This document shows, one piece after another, positions 25,910 through 33,178 of a DNA stretch of 64,000 nucleotides; position 1 is the first letter of the stretch, and every line of letters starts with the position of its first letter. Source of the DNA: Vicinamibacteria bacterium. Its GTDB lineage: Bacteria > Acidobacteriota > Vicinamibacteria > Vicinamibacterales > UBA8438. A model generated the notes under the pieces. The model was not told where the DNA came from. It saw nothing but the letters and a program-made list of their open reading frames with translations, and did no database searches. The stretch lies in assembly GCA_963579735.1 (NCBI GenBank), contig CAUZIB010000005.1, positions 6,463 to 70,462 of the forward strand, in the 5' to 3' direction. Made by a program: the position numbers and the translations under genes.

Positions 25910-26389
25910 GTGCAAATGATGGCCGCTCCATCCGACAGGCATGCTACCATCGCCGTCCAAATGGCTTCCTCCAACGTGTGTATATCGACACGGTCTTCCT
26001 TGATTCGCATCGTGGGTTTTTTCGGGATTCTGAGCCTCGCGGTTGCGACATCCGCTCAATACGGCCATCCGTTGAAAGGCTCGTGGAGCGGCGACTGGGG
26101 AACGGGCGAAGACCGCCGAACCCGTCTCCTTCTCGTGTTCGATTGGGATGGCACGCAAATCATCGGCACGCTCAATCCTGGTCCGAGCGCCGTGCCGATT
26201 GCGACCGCCTCGCTCGATCCTTCCAGTTGGACGGTTCAGATCGAAGCCGAAGGGCAGGACGACTCCGGCGCCCCGGTGCCGTATGTGATCATCGGTGAAT
26301 TGCAGAACATCGGCTCGTCTCACCGGGTGATCACCGGATCGTGGACGCAGGGTACGGTGACCGGCGACTTTACGATTACGAGGAACTAG
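25910..26389 (+). CDS. Exported hypothetical protein
   Basis: Signal-like IVGFFGILSLAVATSAQ followed by a beta-rich domain. The start may be the internal Met at 25961. Confidence 0.5.
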   Translation: MQMMAAPSDRHATIAVQMASSNVCISTRSSLIRIVGFFGILSLAVATSAQYGHPLKGSWSGDWGTGEDRRTRLLLVFDWDGTQIIGTLNPGPSAVPIATASLDPSSWTVQIEAEGQDDSGAPVPYVIIGELQNIGSSHRVITGSWTQGTVTGDFTITRN

Positions 26390-26426
26390 TGTCCAGGCTC
26401 AGTGATCCGGGACACTAGACCGGCGT

Positions 26427-27311
26427 TTATCGATCGGCGAAGATGGGCTGCCCGAAGTCATCAGTGAGCCGATACAAATATCTATTGTTCTCCTGACAGA
26501 CATACTCCATCAGCTCGCCCTCTGGTCTCCACGCAATATCCCAGGCCACGGTCCACGGTTCAGAATACGCGCCAGGATCTTCAATCGTCGCTTCGTAGTG
26601 CAGCGTGTTTTTGTCTCGGCGCTCGAACCGCTCCACAAGATGAAGCGCATCGGTATGGGGGTGGCCAAAGAAATCGATCCAGGTGTTCTCGTTGAATCCC
26701 ACGACGTCCACGACGAACGTATCGCCCTCCCAGCGACCAACCGAATGCCCGAGGAACGTCGGATTCAGCGCATCACCCTCGGGATGGGGACGTCCGTCGA
26801 GGTAAATCTCTCGCCAGATGTGGGTCGCGCCTTCGAAAATCATGATGACGCGTTCTTGGTCCGGCAGTTGAATGATCTCCATCGGATAGGGAGTAGCCAT
26901 CATCCGCGGGCCGCCGGGAGGGAGACAATATCCCTCCGGGTCATATTTTGATTGGTTCGCAGAGTTGTAGTCGTAGATCGCCGCCGCCCAGGGCAAGAAA
27001 GGAATATGAGGCTCGGTGGCGGAACCCGCGCGCGGGCCCCGTGACCCGCTGAGTACCGTGGTCGCCTCGATGGGGGTCCCGTCTGCCCTGATGGAACGCG
27101 ATGCCATGTTGGTGATGTACGGAATGGCCCACACGCCCTTTTCGCCGGCAATGCGCCCAAGGTTGGGGGTGCCATCAGCGAGGCGAGGCGTCGGATCGGA
27201 CGCTGCGGCTGGTTCCTCCGCGCCATTCTGAGTAGCAGCCAGCAGTGGGGAAGGAGACCAAACCGTCGCCCCCAAAACAAGGGTGACCGCCGCAATCGCA
27301 GCGCTCAGCAT
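26427..27311 (-). CDS. Secreted protein of unknown function (paralog of 17214-18275)
   Basis: Start MLSAAIAAVTLVLGATVW. Shared block GHSVGRWEGDTFVVDVVGFNENTW...HTDALHLVERF...DPGAYSEPW. Confidence 0.75.
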   Translation of the reverse strand: MLSAAIAAVTLVLGATVWSPSPLLAATQNGAEEPAAASDPTPRLADGTPNLGRIAGEKGVWAIPYITNMASRSIRADGTPIEATTVLSGSRGPRAGSATEPHIPFLPWAAAIYDYNSANQSKYDPEGYCLPPGGPRMMATPYPMEIIQLPDQERVIMIFEGATHIWREIYLDGRPHPEGDALNPTFLGHSVGRWEGDTFVVDVVGFNENTWIDFFGHPHTDALHLVERFERRDKNTLHYEATIEDPGAYSEPWTVAWDIAWRPEGELMEYVCQENNRYLYRLTDDFGQPIFADR

Positions 27312-27334
27312 GAATCGGTTTCGAGCGCAGCGAG

Positions 27335-27736
27335 TCACGGCGTCTCTCCTTGGCTCGACCCCGCAAACAGCCGTTCGCCGTCGCTGGCCATAAGCACCGT
27401 CCGGGCGTTTGCCCGATTGCTTCCGTCGCTGGCCTGCCATCCCTCGACGGTCACGATGTCACCAACCTTCATGGAGTTTCGTGTCCAACCCCTCCGTATC
27501 AACCCGTTCGGACTTCCCATCTCCCAGCCCCAAACTGCGACGTCACCATCTTCGTCAGTGACATCAACAAAGAACCAGACATGTGGATTCGTCCACTCAA
27601 TCTTCGTGACGGCGCCGTTTGTTTCGACCGGCTGATTTTCGTCGAACTCTGCTGAGAAGGAATGATGGGCCACCAGCGGGACCGCAATCGCGAACAACGC
27701 GGCGACAACCCAAAGAACTCGACACCGACTGGTCAT
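27335..27736 (-). CDS. Small exported protein (HHSF... beta-rich domain), hypothetical
   Basis: GGAAGG ribosome-binding site 7 nt before MTSRCRVLWVVAALFAIAVPLVAHHSFSAEFD; 133 aa. In frame with upstream remnants but has its own start signals. Confidence 0.65.
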   Translation of the reverse strand: MTSRCRVLWVVAALFAIAVPLVAHHSFSAEFDENQPVETNGAVTKIEWTNPHVWFFVDVTDEDGDVAVWGWEMGSPNGLIRRGWTRNSMKVGDIVTVEGWQASDGSNRANARTVLMASDGERLFAGSSQGETP

Positions 27737-28270
27737 TTCTACACCTTCCTGTGGAGCACTCCATCGCGAGAGCCGCAATCCCACTTGCCTGCCGTCTCGA
27801 CTCTCTTCGTCGACCGCGAGGCCTCCGACGATACCATCAACTCGGTGTCCGATTTGGATCGCTCTGAGTTTCTCTATCTCGGCCGGCGTCGCCGCCATGG
27901 GGTCGACGTCGCCACAGGTAAAGGCACGGAGAGTGCACTCGGACGTAGTGTGAGCAATCCCACGTTCTTCCATGAGACCCGCTATGAGCTCGGCCGCGTC
28001 CTCCATCATGACGATGGCATTGTTTGGTCGAAAGGTTCCTACCCCGATGGCATAATCGAGCGCCATAAGCGGTTCGATGCTTCCGCCAAAGGCGCCGTCG
28101 TTTTTCTTTCCCAGGTCGTGGGCACCGAGGTCCGCGCCCTGATCGACCAGGTATGTGATGATGTCGATGTCACCCATATTCGCGGCAACCATGAGTGGGG
28201 TTATACCGGCGTCATCCGCCAAATTGACGTCCGCGCCAAGACCCACGAGACGTTGGATGACTCGCAGCCG
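27737..28270 (-). pseudogene. Ankyrin-repeat protein C-terminal fragment
   Basis: GADVNLADDAGITPLMVAANMGDIDIITYLVDQGADL repeats. No start of its own; fused in frame to a transposase fragment. Confidence 0.6.
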
Positions 28271-28480
28271 CTCGCCGAACGCTCGCCAGATGCGGCTAAT
28301 CGACGTCTGACTCAGGCCAGCATGTTTGGCCATCTCTCGGGTACTCCAGTGGGTCGCGTTCCGTGGCGTCGATTCGAGCGTGTCGACCACAATCTTTTCG
28401 ATCTGGTCGTCGCCGATGCGGCGCGGCGTCGCGGCCCTCGAAGGCGTCCGAACACCGTCACTGGTCGCGAAGGCGGTTAG
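28270..28480 (-). mobile_element. IS630-family transposase internal fragment (HTH region only)
   Basis: ...RRIGDDQIEKIVVDTLESTPRNATHWSTREMAKHAGLSQTSISRIWRAFGE matches the N-terminal DNA-binding region of IS630 transposases. No DDE domain and no terminal repeats. Confidence 0.6.
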
Positions 28481-28487
28481 GCACCCG

Positions 28488-28799
28488 CTACGGCGTCAGC
28501 GTGAGGCCGAGTCCATTGCCGTCCGACTTCGTCGTGTAAAACGGAAGCTGACATTGCGCGAACTGCTCGTCGGGTCCTGCCAACCCCTGCGTCGCGAACG
28601 GTAACGCGACTCCCGTCATCACCCAATCGCTGTGTAGAGACCGTGACGGTTCAACGGGGGACAGCGAATTGTTCAGGCTATGGGCGATGCCAGCCGTCAG
28701 TGTGCCAATTGACAGGAGCCGCTTGCTGCGTCTGACCATCGCGTCGGCGCGCTTCAGCTCCGAGACATCAGGGTATGCGGACGACCTGCCAGGCACCAC
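28488..28799 (-). pseudogene. Histidine kinase remnant with an internal deletion
   Basis: H-box LTAGIAHSLNNSL, then only about 40 aa before PFYTTKSDGNGLGL. No sensor domain or G2 tail. Confidence 0.55.
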
Positions 28800-28822
28800 C
28801 CGACCGTTTTGTCTTTTCTTCC

Positions 28823-29245
28823 TTAGTCCTCCCCCCCGTGCGCCCGCCCTCGTAGTTCCTTTGTCTGGCCACGGCGCCGTTTCGCGTCGAGCCTTTTTTC
28901 GCGGGCAGCTGGACGAGGTCTTGTGGGTCGCCGCGCTTTCGGAGGGCGTGCCGCACGCCCCAACAGCTCGGCCAGCCGCCGTCTGGCCGCTGTGCGGTTC
29001 TGGCCCTGCGTCCGATGCTCACGGCTGTCGATTACGAGGACGCCTCTCGACGAGACTCGGCTGCCAGCCAGCGCGATCAGTCGCGCCTTGAATTCGGGAG
29101 CGAAAGACGAGTTTTCTACATCAAAGCGCAACTCCACCGCGGTCGCGACCTTGTTGACGTTTTGCCCACCCGGTCCCGAAGCGCGCACGAAGCGTTCCTC
29201 TAATTCGTGTTCCTCGATCCAGACGGTGTCGCAGACCTTGATCAT
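28823..29245 (-). CDS. arfB: Alternative ribosome-rescue factor B (peptidyl-tRNA hydrolase, ICT1/YaeJ family)
   Basis: MIKV... start, GGQ motif SGPGGQNVNKV, basic C-terminal tail; 140 aa. Confidence 0.85.
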   Translation of the reverse strand: MIKVCDTVWIEEHELEERFVRASGPGGQNVNKVATAVELRFDVENSSFAPEFKARLIALAGSRVSSRGVLVIDSREHRTQGQNRTAARRRLAELLGRAARPPKARRPTRPRPAAREKRLDAKRRRGQTKELRGRAHGGED

Positions 29246-29478
29246 GGCCACTTGAGATCTAGCCCGCCAGCCTTCTCGTAAAGTGTGCGTGTCGGCGCTC
29301 CGCTGTACGGTGGAGCGCATCAAGCGCCACTATTCTAGCAACCTTCAAGCAGGGCGGCGTTTCTGGCGTCTTACTTCGCTTCCCGTCGAGCACACGACGC
29401 CAACTCGAAGATACGGCGCCGGAGATGGGCGGGGTGGACGGCTGGACTCTGCGAAATGGGTGGCGCGATACCCGCGGC

Positions 29479-29868
29479 TTGCTCTCGTCCACGAGAGCAA
29501 TGCAGAATCGGGATAGGGGGGCACCTCACGGTGCCGCCCCTCCCAGCTCTCGCTGGGTTTACTGCCGCCTGTCGCTCATGAGATACCCGTCTCTACTAGC
29601 CACTCCGTTACCCCCCTCACGGGGAGCCGTTCAGGCCTTCGGTGAGGTGAGACCTCCGGTGCTCCGGCTCGTTTCCGCTACCTACTATGCCATCTGCTGA
29701 CTCCTGGGCCGCGGGCAGGTCCACTTCGTGTGACTTCGACTGCGATAGTTCGTCATGGAGACTCCCTGTCGTGATGCTTTGGCGGCTCACGTTCGGGAGT
29801 TCCTCATTCCACTTCCGGAACTGTCAAACTCTGGGTGCCGCCCCGGCAAAGCCTGGGGGTCTCCCCCG
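29479..29868 (-). ncRNA. Candidate large structured RNA, family unassigned
   Basis: No credible coding frame. At least 9 perfect local helices, three of them GNRA-capped when read on the minus strand (GUGA, GAGA, GUGA), plus a terminal 9-bp hairpin. See findings. Confidence 0.5.
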
Positions 29869-29874
29869 TTTACG

Positions 29875-30650
29875 CTAGAGGGGGCGAGCCGAGGGCAGGT
29901 CGAGAAGCTCCGCGGATAACAATCGCCGTTCACACATGCTCTTGGATGTGTACTCGACGTCGCTGGGGCGTGGTGCGTCTTGCGTCTCGATGGCCGCTTC
30001 GTTGAAATCGAGAAAGAACCAGGCAATCTGTCTCCCCTCGAGTGCGGAGGCAGAATAGCGCTGCTCAGCGTTGTCCGCATATTCGCCCAACCACGTTCGA
30101 CCCACCAGGATGGGACCGTGCCGACCGGGAATCACGACGGCAAGGTCATACACACCCAGTCTCTCCACCAGTCCTGCGAGCCGCCGGAGCAGCGGAATGT
30201 TGTCATCGGTATGAGTGTTCGGCTCGTCGAGACCCGTTCTTCGCTGCTCGGGGAGTGTGGAGCTGTAGTTCAGGTCGACGTAGTTGGACCGGGCGTGAAT
30301 GTCGAGACTTCCGGGTTCTCGACAAAGCTCTCAATGAGATTCTGGGGGATGAGACGCGTCACGAAATCGACACGGGCGCTCTGACCAATCCGATTCGCTC
30401 CCCGAGCGAGACGCGAGCACGGATCGGGCCGCTCGAAGTACTTCCCAAACCAGACCCGTCCGGTCAGATGCTCTAACACGTCCGAGATATCCACATCATC
30501 CGTCAGGTCGATGGAGGCCCCGAGACCGGCTGAGAATCCGCGTGGCAAGTAGCTCATGCTCACGCCATATTCGTTGAAAATCTTCAGTAAGAGGTCCGCG
30601 TATATGGGGAGTGACGGAGGTTCTCTACGTTGGCGTCCTCCTGGCCGCGG
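29875..30650 (-). pseudogene. Unassignable protein-coding remnant (frameshifted, start-less)
   Basis: ORFs 30270-30563 and 29875-30168 join into one ~255-codon frame through a shift near 30300-30320. The frame stays open upstream to 30650 with no ATG, GTG or TTG. Confidence 0.45.
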
Positions 30651-31929
30651 TTACGAGGTTTGGGATCGTCGTCGCACGCTACTTGAGTGCCGTATGGCGC
30701 TGGGGTGCCGCCCAACACCCGCGCCGTGTGGTTGTCGGGTGGGCGATGCTCAACACGTATTTCGTGCTGTCGCTGTCGTGGTTTGGCGTCGCCCGAGACG
30801 ACGCGATCCTTCAACTTCAGGCCAAGGAGTCCTTCTACAACTGGCAGCGGTCACAGGAAGTACTCGCCACCCTCGAGACGCTCAGCGGTTCCTCGATGCA
30901 GGCTGCGACCCGCTTGGCCCAAACCCTCCCCGTACGTCGTCCTGACATCTTTCTGTTTGAGGTCGAGTCGTATGGCGCCACGCTATGGGCGGACGACGAC
31001 TACGAAGTTGCCCGACAGGGACTGATGCGCCGAGTGCAGAGCGAGCTGGACGAACTGCAACTCCCGATTGTCACACGCTTCGCGACCTCTCCCGGATACG
31101 GCGGTGGGTTCTGGATGAGCAAGGCGTCGTCTTTGAGCGGGATAAAGATCTCGTCCCATTCGACGCACTTGGCCTGGAAGCAAATTGCCAGCCAGTATCC
31201 TCACTTGGTCTCCTACCTGAACCGCAACGGCTATTACACGCTCGCCGTTCAGCCCGCCACCCTATGGACGGACGGACTGTACGGCTACGACGAAGTCATC
31301 GTGCGCGATGACTTCTCATGCGACGGCTCCTTCTACGGGTTCGGTCACGTTCCAGACCAATGGTCGCTTGACTACGCCTTTACCCACCACTGGAGCAAAC
31401 ACCCACGGCCTCGCCTCTTTCACTTCTCGACCGTGTCCACCCACTTTGCGTGGGAACCGCCGCCGCAGATCACAGACGACGTCGCGGAACTCGAAGCGCC
31501 ACAACCCTCCTTCCTCGAGACCCGGCCCGGCTACGTGGAGCTCGCGCTGACGGTGCCCAAGGTCGGAAGCGCAACTACTTCGTCACCGTCGCCTACGAGT
31601 GGGAGTTGCTGCTCGCGGCGTTCCGACATCGCATCGAGCCAGGATTCATCGCGTTGATTTATGGAGACCACCAGCCGCCGTTCATTGCAAACGGACGGGG
31701 CGACAACGATGTCGCGGTTCATGTCATAACCGATATTCTCGAGCTATTGGGCCCCTTGGCGGAGGCCGGCTTCGCCGCGGGAAGCTCAACGCCTTGGACA
31801 TCCGCCTCGGAAGAGTTCCGGATCGAAGGGTTCTATTCGTTCGTCGTGAGCCTGCTGTCGACACAGGGTGGAGCCGACTTGGAGTACAGCCCCCAGGCCT
31901 TCTCCGTCCCGACGATGCCGACCTGGTAG
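30611..31929 (+). pseudogene. Sulfatase/LTA-synthase-like (alkaline phosphatase superfamily) membrane protein, frameshifted and probably 5'-truncated
   Basis: DIFLFEVESYG and YGDHQPP motifs. Reading frame changes near 31565 (ORF 30611-31657 to ORF 31450-31929). Only about 2 N-terminal TM helices. Confidence 0.6.
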
Positions 31930-32065
31930 CCCCACGGGCTCCGCTCAGCGAGTGCCGGCAACGGGGCCACACACCCAGGGACCTTCTTGATACGATCGGA
32001 CCCGCCGCGATAGTGCAGGAGCGTGTGCCTTTCGCGTCTCTTGGATTGCGAGCACGAGGTTTTCG

Positions 32066-33178
32066 ATGGGCTGCTGCGAAGCGACACAACCGCGTATACG
32101 AGGAGTCGGGCCGAACCGACGGTCTGAGGCTCGTCGTGCGACCGACACGATCCAGTGGCCCGAACTCGGTGACCGGTGGAATCGTCGGACCGCACTGAAG
32201 AGTCTGCTTGGCGCCGCTGGCGTCGTCGCGGTCAGCGGATGCTCCACGACACCAGAAGAAGGCACGAACAGCATACAACTGGCCTTTTGCGGGCAGCTTC
32301 TCTGTGTCGTGCCGTATGAGGTCGCCCAAGCACGAGGACACTTTGCCGACCAGGGACTTGCCGTGGAGCTGGTCTACACCCGGGGCGGGACGGCCGCCAT
32401 GCAAGCGCTTGTCGCGGGCGGGGTCGACTATGCGGGCACGTCGTTTGACGTCGCGCTGCAGGCCGTGGCGAATGGTGCGAACATTCGGCGGTTTGCCTCG
32501 ACCGGTCGATTACCGTTGTTCGCACTCGCGGTCGCACCAGACCACACGGAGACGATTCGCACGGTCCGCGCGCTGGAAGGCCGGACGGTGGGTGTGTCTG
32601 GTCTTGGCAACGCGGACCATGCGCTGCTGCTGTTCTTACTGGACCAAGCCGGAGCCGACTCGACAAGTGTCGACTTCGCCACGATCGGGACGAATCTCTT
32701 CGATGCCCTTCGGATAGGGCAGGTCGACGCGGCAATGCTCCAGGAGCCGGCTCTCTCGCTGATCATCGACGCCGGGGGCCGCGAGCTCGTGAACTTCATG
32801 GAACTCGAACAAGCGCGACAATACCTGGGCGGAGCCTACGAATTCATGGGTGTCTCGGTGCGAACCGAAGAACGCGACGAGCGCCTCCCAGAAATGCGCC
32901 GGCTCGCCGCCGCCTTGGCCGCGGGTCTGGCCGACACGCGAACGCTCCCCCCCGCCGACATTGTTGCCGCGTTGCCATCCGCTCTCGTCGCCGGAGGAAA
33001 CCTGGGTCAGCTCGAACAGATTATCGAGCGCTACCGACTGTCGCTCTACCCCGAACACGTTGGGATCGACATCGACGCCGCGCAGCGCGTGGTCGAAGCC
33101 CAAGAAGTCGCCGGGCTCTTGAGCCCCGGACAAGTCGACATAGCGACGTGGCTGGATACTGAGGTCCTCGAGGGCTAG
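32066..33178 (+). CDS. ABC transporter substrate-binding protein (NMT1/SsuA/TauA-like), Tat-lipoprotein
   Basis: NRRTALKSLLGAAGVVAVSGC (twin-Arg plus lipobox). NitT/TauT-type periplasmic domain next to a matching ATPase and permease. Confidence 0.75.
   Translation: MGCCEATQPRIRGVGPNRRSEARRATDTIQWPELGDRWNRRTALKSLLGAAGVVAVSGCSTTPEEGTNSIQLAFCGQLLCVVPYEVAQARGHFADQGLAVELVYTRGGTAAMQALVAGGVDYAGTSFDVALQAVANGANIRRFASTGRLPLFALAVAPDHTETIRTVRALEGRTVGVSGLGNADHALLLFLLDQAGADSTSVDFATIGTNLFDALRIGQVDAAMLQEPALSLIIDAGGRELVNFMELEQARQYLGGAYEFMGVSVRTEERDERLPEMRRLAAALAAGLADTRTLPPADIVAALPSALVAGGNLGQLEQIIERYRLSLYPEHVGIDIDAAQRVVEAQEVAGLLSPGQVDIATWLDTEVLEG

Follow-up and report, generated by a model that had tools for sequence, protein, structure and literature searches.

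The minus-strand stretch that lies between a pseudogene and an arfB-like gene in a marine Vicinamibacterales (Acidobacteriota) genome is best read as a chimeric scar, in which two truncated mobile elements sit head to tail. We give this reading a probability of about 0.88. Judged from the sequence, in which homology, boundaries and missing parts can all be traced, the stretch is the fused debris of an IS200-type left end and a gutted group II intron. These are two unrelated pieces, and not the single RNA of about 390 nt from a possible new family that the initial annotation had described. Both parents are well-known kinds of mobile element, and the locus itself is of an already known and ordinary kind. 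The coordinates below refer to the window, the whole stretch of 64,000 nucleotides of DNA that was analysed. Both remnants read on its minus strand, which the initial annotation had rightly picked as the informative one.

The IS200/IS605 left end occupies 29874-29716 (minus strand) and was delimited by homology to metagenome copies. A pointer to this element was a weak BLAST match of 29858-29759 to a locus (L380) just upstream of a 143-aa ORF with an IS200 transposase signature. A pattern common to the window and this locus, CCAGAGTTTGACANTTNCGGNA, is present in more than 120 metagenome contigs, against fewer than 10 expected by chance according to our own estimate. From 29883 to 29716 the window is 85-87.5% identical over 163-168 nt to the copies at L414, L495, L484, L443 and L406, with E-values down to 1e-50. 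At 53 of 120 loci a TnpA homologue is encoded, without exception in the same orientation, and at 51 of these 53 it starts 60-99 nt past the motif; the 67 loci in which no TnpA was seen could be cut contigs or non-autonomous derivatives. The protein at L495 matches PF01797, Y1_Tnp ('Transposase IS200 like'), with E = 6.5e-37. Intact copies are about 0.66 kb long, encode tnpA only and carry a CCCCCGGC-N3-GCCGGGGG hairpin near both ends. In a set of more than 120 contigs (L402-L521) that come from many kinds of habitat, the left end and 5'UTR (GGUAAACCCCCGGCUnUGCCGGGGGACUCCCAGAGUUUGACA..., with the Shine-Dalgarno clamp described below) are highly conserved, and an Rfam scan of 14 IS left-end loci returned no match.

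The non-coding part of this left end (29757..29874, minus strand) was assigned by homology and a conserved motif, and comprises a subterminal hairpin, a CCAGAGTTTGACA box and the tnpA 5'UTR. The putative TnpA recognition hairpin is an imperfect palindrome, CCCC(A)GGC-UUU-GCCGGGG, at 29841..29858 (minus strand). It is supported by covariation, as the 7-bp hairpin is kept in 29 sequences with compensatory changes at three pairs; the A.G opposition at columns 27/37 is found in the window only among these 29 left ends. The hairpins near both ends of intact copies agree with the subterminal imperfect palindromes described for IS608 (PMC3201880). The hairpin GGGGG-AGA-CCCCC (29855..29867, minus strand) overlaps the left-end palindrome and competes with it, and is common to the closest IS copies (L414, L406 and L443) and absent from L495 and L484.

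Downstream of the palindrome, a two-tier 5'UTR hairpin (29761..29800, minus strand) places an outer ACUCCC/GGGAGU stem over the Shine-Dalgarno sequence and contains an inner GUGAGC...GCAUCAC stem. Each of 29 left ends, 28 with a TnpA-type frame plus the window, folds alike when treated separately, with 6-10 of the 11 bases of the Shine-Dalgarno region paired, and the stem sequences differ between copies (for example AAAGCCUCC/GGAGGCUUU and CUUGAG/CUCAAG). RNAalifold missed this clamp on the gappy alignment A5, and it was recovered by folding the sequences singly. A tnpA 5'UTR hairpin that occludes the Shine-Dalgarno sequence is known as a translational clamp of Salmonella IS200 (PMC4513863). 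The ACUCCC/GGGAGU pairing of the initial annotation is therefore a genuine helix, namely the clamp of an IS200 tnpA 5'UTR. On the same alignment (columns 50-58 with 93-103) RNAalifold also pairs the invariant AGAGUUUGAC box with an invariant GUGAACCGCUC in the 5'UTR, at about 29832-29824 with 29789-29779 in the window. This pairing is conserved and shows no covariation; it could be either an RNA helix or a DNA-level interaction between guide and cleavage site.

The clamp is followed by the first 14 codons of tnpA, MTNYRSRSHTKWTC, at 29715..29756 on the minus strand with the ATG at 29756; intact relatives read MTNYRSLNHSKWACQYHVVFIPKYRK... or MTNYRSLNHSKWACQYH... at the matching position. After codon 14 the frame passes into intron sequence and meets a stop after 23 aa in total. 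The view that the stretch holds no coding frame was mostly sound, the exception being this start of a truncated tnpA. The window contains no further tnpA (PF01797) or other IS sequence. It also contains no IS right end with a matching hairpin, as the complete IS copies of L495 and L403 have no match in it outside 29879-29716. The IS stump is unable to transpose because it has neither a transposase nor a right end. A further copy from this IS subfamily, found in the same series of samples (L443:7869-8031, Ga0310121_10000387), has its tnpA broken after about 19 codons by unrelated GC-rich sequence, which suggests that the IS has decayed repeatedly in these communities.

The second piece, the group II intron remnant, spans 29722-29507 on the minus strand and is defined by an RF01998 match, BLASTN and alignments. 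Its larger part is the distal (3') half of domain I (29558..29722, minus strand), which is supported by RF01998, BLASTN, the alignments A1-A3 and RNAalifold. The RF01998 model (group II intron D1-D4-1) matches the minus strand at 29722-29634 with 32.6 bits and E = 6e-4, below the gathering score of 35. The initial annotation had stated that a significant Rfam hit would make the stretch a known family, and this match nearly does so. In the alignments A1-A3, the distal domain I of the window carries every invariant motif: AGUCAGCAGAnGnCAUAGUAG, GGAAACGAGCC, GGAGGnCUCACC and GAAGGCCnGAACGG. The piece TCAGCAGAnGnCATAGTAG is the most conserved part of the remnant and is found in more than 120 species-representative genomes. 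RNAalifold on A3 predicts 16 pairs, nine of them with compensatory changes, including the GCCGG/CCGG hairpin; in the window the hairpins CCGG-AGCA-CCGG (29655-29668) and CCCC-GUGA-GGGG (29613-29624), both on the minus strand, belong to this distal domain I.

Ten loci of these introns were scanned with Rfam, and in each complete copy the matches are ordered RF02001 (D1-D4-3), RF01998 and RF00029 (domains V-VI); some copies carry an ORF of about 1.5 kb and some are ORF-less and about 0.6 kb long. BLASTN aligns the introns to the window at 29726-29543 and 29545-29506. A second search pattern, for the subclass that shares the GGAAACGAGCC...GGAGGnCUCACC insertion of the window, led to closer relatives. 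The best one found, in a Nitrospiraceae MAG (locus L367, CAZKRM010000045.1), is 83% identical over 96 nt (E = 1.4e-19), and this locus has two intron copies, of which the one covered in full encodes a 481-aa reverse transcriptase ORF with YADD. Group II introns of about 0.6 kb that have no ORF but keep all RNA domains are seen at L029:2480-3123, L025:6482-7133 and L073:1-560, and such introns sit in MAGs of Latescibacterota, Alphaproteobacteria and Bryobacterales (loci L029, L025, L073 and L093). At L093:4400-7250, at least three head-to-tail sets of matches to domain I and domain V/VI are found within 3 kb. ORF-less introns were considered rare in bacteria in a 2015 review (PMC4424553).

The proximal part of domain I and the 5' splice site, the region of RF02001, are missing from the remnant: there is no RF02001 match at E <= 10, a single-sequence nhmmer search for the intron 5' half in the window found nothing, and a profile of 109 intron 5' halves matches the window at 29751-29676 only. 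Intron homology stops upstream at about 29722-29751, and judged against intact copies about 300 nt of the 5' intron are gone. We also considered whether the 5' third of the stretch might be a proximal domain I that has diverged, its 5' splice site being a GUGUG near 29935. This was rejected, since RF02001, nhmmer and the 109-sequence profile all fail there and the sequence is the IS200 left end. No intron-encoded reverse transcriptase or maturase ORF is found in the remnant.

Towards its 3' end the remnant continues with the hairpin CCCAGC-GAGA-GCUGGG (29542..29557, minus strand), the homologue of a CCAG-N6-CUGG hairpin that follows domain I in the relatives (A1 columns 449-461). It is probably domain II. 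An internal deletion junction lies at 29542..29545 (minus strand), where the window has a gap in A1 (columns 462-655) and about 155-195 nt kept in ORF-less relatives, including domain V, are absent. No match to domain V (RF00029) was found at the gathering score or at E <= 10 in the scanned ranges, nor did a domain V consensus with up to three mismatches match anywhere in the 64-kb window. Domain VI follows at 29507..29544 (minus strand), with a GUGA tetraloop, a bulged branch-point A (in UAU) and the 3' terminus ...CCCGAU. It aligns gapless with 19 distinct domain VI sequences of bona fide introns, all of them 38 nt long with matching termini, and shares with them the frame GGGAGG...CCCUAUCCCGAU and a GNRA loop. 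In this alignment 97% of cells pair, with compensatory changes at five pairs, whereas slid controls are all far worse; in the relatives the domain VI sequence forms the 3' half of the RF00029 matches. The three hairpins with GNRA loops in the initial annotation (29520-29535, 29542-29557 and 29613-29624) are thus genuine RNA elements, and they come from a group II intron.

A search for the junction pattern in 185,579 species-representative genomes gave 78 matches, none of which is homologous by BLAST. A recurrent family of mini-introns without domain V was therefore rejected, and no copy of the deletion junction was found in these genomes. The intron piece would neither splice nor move, because the 5' splice site, half of domain I, domain V and the maturase are gone. 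Seven nucleotides past the intron 3' end, and outside both elements, the 3' flank contains a perfect 9-bp hairpin, UUGCUCUCG-UGGA-CGAGAGCAA (29479..29500), which has no homologue in any fetched locus. It was considered as a terminator or as the IS right end and rejected as both, having no T-tract and no homology.

On the upstream side the scar adjoins a pseudogene (29878..30623, minus strand) that corresponds to residues 113-361 of a 361-aa hypothetical protein. It is truncated at its 5' end, has a frameshift near 30315 and an intact C-terminus, and is 79% identical to its relative P0001; comparison with the relatives bears out the 'decayed ORF' that had been noted here. In relatives the gene sits in a five-gene operon, and the operon partners are absent from the 64-kb window. 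The operon order in relatives is a GMC oxidoreductase, the homologue of the pseudogene and then proteins of 408, 433 and 496 aa (with a faint Dyp-peroxidase match), and the intact relatives of the pseudogene are 335-372 aa long, with a lipoprotein-like N-terminus and no Pfam domain (L522:248-7473).

The tetranucleotide CTAG at 29875..29878 (minus strand) lies directly 5' of the IS left end, as judged from related copies and an empty site, and is the probable target and left cleavage site. At this position the related IS copies carry CTAG or a CTAA/TTAA-like motif, with CTAG in the closest copies. The TAG of CTAG is also the natural stop codon of the upstream pseudogene. The empty site is seen at L522, where an intact 361-aa gene ends ...CCGCTCTAG|CAAAAG without an IS; this site, too, ends in CTAG.

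Downstream of the remnant and on the same strand lies an arfB-like gene (28823..29248, minus strand; PF00472, E = 3e-20). Its 141-aa product has an RF-1 domain with a GGQ motif, consistent with the earlier arfB call, and 76% amino acid identity to a protein of a Vicinamibacterales MAG (OY759970.1); the exact protein sequence was looked up with two alternative starts and neither is on record. A conserved arfB leader was considered and rejected, as in 80 arfB loci the similarity to the window is confined to the coding sequence, with upstream homology in 0 of the 80. Further downstream, the ORF at 27335-28390 (minus strand) combines a weak rpiR-like HTH, ankyrin repeats and DUF6152. In public records the gene is called as 332 aa, and the ORF may be a fusion or have an over-extended start.

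The position of the scar next to arfB raises the question whether the IS200 5'UTR, the intron fragment or both have been domesticated as a regulatory RNA, transcribed as an sRNA or as an arfB leader with a host function. The scar shares its strand with arfB, which follows it downstream; no intrinsic terminator is predicted in the stretch or before the gene, and the retained hairpins are largely intact. There is also an analogue, since in Salmonella regulatory small RNAs are processed from the IS200 tnpA 5'UTR (PMC5435999). Against this stand the arfB relatives in Vicinamibacterales and Acidobacteriota, which have no homologous upstream sequence, and the fact that the chimera was found nowhere else. 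In addition, no sigma-70-like promoter is predicted in the stretch, the left-end hairpin has a disruptive mismatch and the neighbourhood is full of decay. We consider such a domestication quite unlikely, although it is the main alternative that survives. The more specific variant, by analogy with Salmonella, in which the hairpins would still be transcribed from the old tnpA promoter and act as a trans-acting sRNA or as a leader that tunes arfB, appears to us very unlikely; if it were true, the transcribed remnant would be an exaptation of mobile-element debris.

In the chimeric scar that we prefer to see here, the junction of the two elements lies at 29716..29719 (minus strand), in a CCTG that is common to both parents. 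The IS homology ends at 29716, while the intron homology and the Rfam match start at 29722-29725. Because the alignment to either parent is weak over about 30 nt (29723-29751), the junction can be placed only to a few bases. The idea of an intron inserted in the tnpA of related IS copies was rejected because 14 IS-bearing contigs show no group II intron signal.

Junctions of this kind could in principle be artefacts of repeat collapse during assembly, and two Logan contigs (SRR9039929 and SRR9039963) do break off within the IS left end (29819 and 29824). From these ends onward, however, both contigs are identical to the window, and their ending there is consistent with a sequence that is repeated in the community. 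Moreover, JGI Ga0310120_10000449 and ENA ERZ27247690, which were assembled independently, both cover the region from end to end and match the window with 100% identity. An assembly chimera is highly improbable in the light of these contigs. All independent assemblies that were found are 100% identical, and there is consequently no population variation from which relaxed or purifying selection could be gauged.

The proposal that the minus strand encodes a large structured non-coding RNA of a new family, which is how the initial annotation read the stretch, can be understood from the folding results. On the minus strand the 411-nt stretch is more stable than dinucleotide shuffles (z = -2.94, with none of 100 shuffles as stable), and on the plus strand the value is z = -2.83, with one of 100 as stable. 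This stability exceeds chance, but with nearly equal values folding energy does not choose the strand; GNRA loops do occur on the minus strand only. All hairpins, paired segments and the 11-nt direct repeat that had been listed (the latter at 29530 and 29834) are present exactly as written, as confirmed by a script. Furthermore, no Rfam family reaches its gathering score here: scanned at gathering scores, the whole 64-kb window yields three tRNAs only. A permissive scan (E <= 10) of 29200-30100 gave RF01998 as its one match near the threshold, and the RF00029 scan covered 26000-33000. RNase P RNA, tmRNA, OLE, GOLLD, ROOL, HEARO, raiA and 6S gave no match at the gathering score in 64 kb or at E <= 10 in 29200-30100. 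The initial annotation had noted that the hallmark motifs of RNase P RNA, tmRNA and the large ornate RNAs are absent, and these were rejected as candidates on the lack of Rfam matches.

The proposed RNA is nevertheless divided midway by the boundary between two unrelated elements. Each half has strong and specific homology to a known element family, with E = 1e-19 for the intron and E = 1e-50 for the IS200/IS605 left end, and the statement that it fits no known family does not hold. Neither do the helices that would link the halves find support in the families. The suggested pseudoknot (GGCGGC/GCCGCC) joins two different elements. The bases of the GAGGU/ACCUC hairpin, which the family alignments do not support, are the invariant GGAGGnCUCACC motif, and those of the equally unsupported AGCCG/CGGCU enclosing helix are used by the covarying GCCGG/CCGG hairpin. 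As for the 11-nt direct repeat, which is real, one copy (29844-29834) is conserved IS left-end sequence and the copy at 29530 is the 5' arm of domain VI. Repeats this long occur in 64 of 2000 first-order Markov samples (about 3%), and we therefore treat the one seen here as coincidence. No second copy of the stretch is found within the window. The dense perfect helices and GNRA loops are a legacy of the functional folds of the parents and not evidence of present function, and a new RNA family is barely credible.

Equally hard to credit is a functional split or ORF-less group II intron with its missing parts supplied in trans: the ORF-less relatives with all domains at L029, L025 and L073 do exist, bacterial ORF-less introns usually rely on a related intron-encoded protein in trans and organellar trans-splicing fragments are known (PMC4424553), but neither a 5' splice site nor a 5' half of domain I is found adjacent to the remnant or anywhere in the window, domain V is absent from the 64 kb, the 5' end is fused to a transposase stump in a frame-breaking manner and not to an exon, and no host gene is interrupted.

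Comparison with known systems agrees with the reading as a scar of two mobile elements. The remnant shares with the group II intron lineage that matches RF02001, RF01998 and RF00029 the motifs and helices of distal domain I, the hairpin after domain I and the 38-nt domain VI, and its identity to real copies is 80-87%. Unlike these copies, it is a dead fragment, from which the 5' splice site has gone together with domain V, about 300 nt of domain I and the segment that holds the ORF in ORF-carrying relatives. With the IS200 group of IS200/IS605 elements, such as Salmonella IS200 and IS608 of H. pylori, the IS part of the scar has in common the left-end hairpin, the 5' tetranucleotide, the 5'UTR hairpin that occludes the Shine-Dalgarno sequence and the N-terminus of tnpA. 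It differs from them in that only the first ~160 nt are kept, with no transposase past codon 14, no right end and an A.G mismatch in the hairpin. The fragmented group II introns of bacterial surveys (PMC4424553, PMC3522654) are likewise truncated copies amid mobile DNA with no intact relative nearby, and we see no essential difference between them and the intron part of the window.

A functional union of a ribozyme-type intron with an IS200/IS605 element exists in the IStrons, for example CdISt1 of Clostridioides difficile, in which a group I intron and an IS200/IS605 element are fused as complete, cooperating parts and the intron lies 5' of the IS genes. The scar resembles IStrons in joining a ribozyme-type intron to such an element. 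Its intron, however, belongs to group II, each part is truncated, and the IS stump precedes the intron stump. This contrast points to an accidental fusion.

From these observations we infer the order of events and a joining mediated by microhomology. An IS200-group element with tnpA only, about 0.66 kb when intact, would have inserted right after the CTAG that holds the stop codon of the upstream gene. A subsequent loss would have left its first ~160 nt, with the left-end DNA hairpin that would serve as recognition site of the Y1 transposase, the 5'UTR hairpin that would hide the tnpA ribosome-binding site, and 14 tnpA codons. In a second step this piece may have been joined at the CCTG microhomology to the middle of a group II intron. 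The intron would have kept distal domain I, the one hairpin that comes next, and domain VI up to the 3' splice terminus. It would have lost its 5' splice site, about 300 nt of domain I, the catalytic domain V and the ORF segment that ORF-carrying relatives have.

The remnant is most likely inert today. One caveat is that the intron-derived hairpins are all perfect, and more broken pairs might be expected in a very old and freely decaying remnant; compared with the families, the window shows one A.C and one A.G mismatch.

Among bacterial group II introns, most copies have suffered truncation or inactivation and lie amid other mobile DNA (PMC4424553), and a survey of Enterobacteriales alone counted 111 intron fragments (PMC3522654). 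Truncation is the usual fate of bacterial group II introns, and the locus adds one more example, from an uncultured marine member of the Vicinamibacterales. It also calls for caution, as group II introns that have decayed to the point of losing domain V fall under the Rfam gathering thresholds, the IS200/IS605 left ends scanned here match no Rfam model, and the hairpins that such debris has inherited can mimic a new 'ornate' RNA when sequences are scanned for GNRA loops and dense helices. For the uncultured marine acidobacterium in which it is found, the locus would provide a clean example of an IS200-type insertion at a CTAG stop codon, and an example of two mobile elements joined at a 4-nt microhomology.
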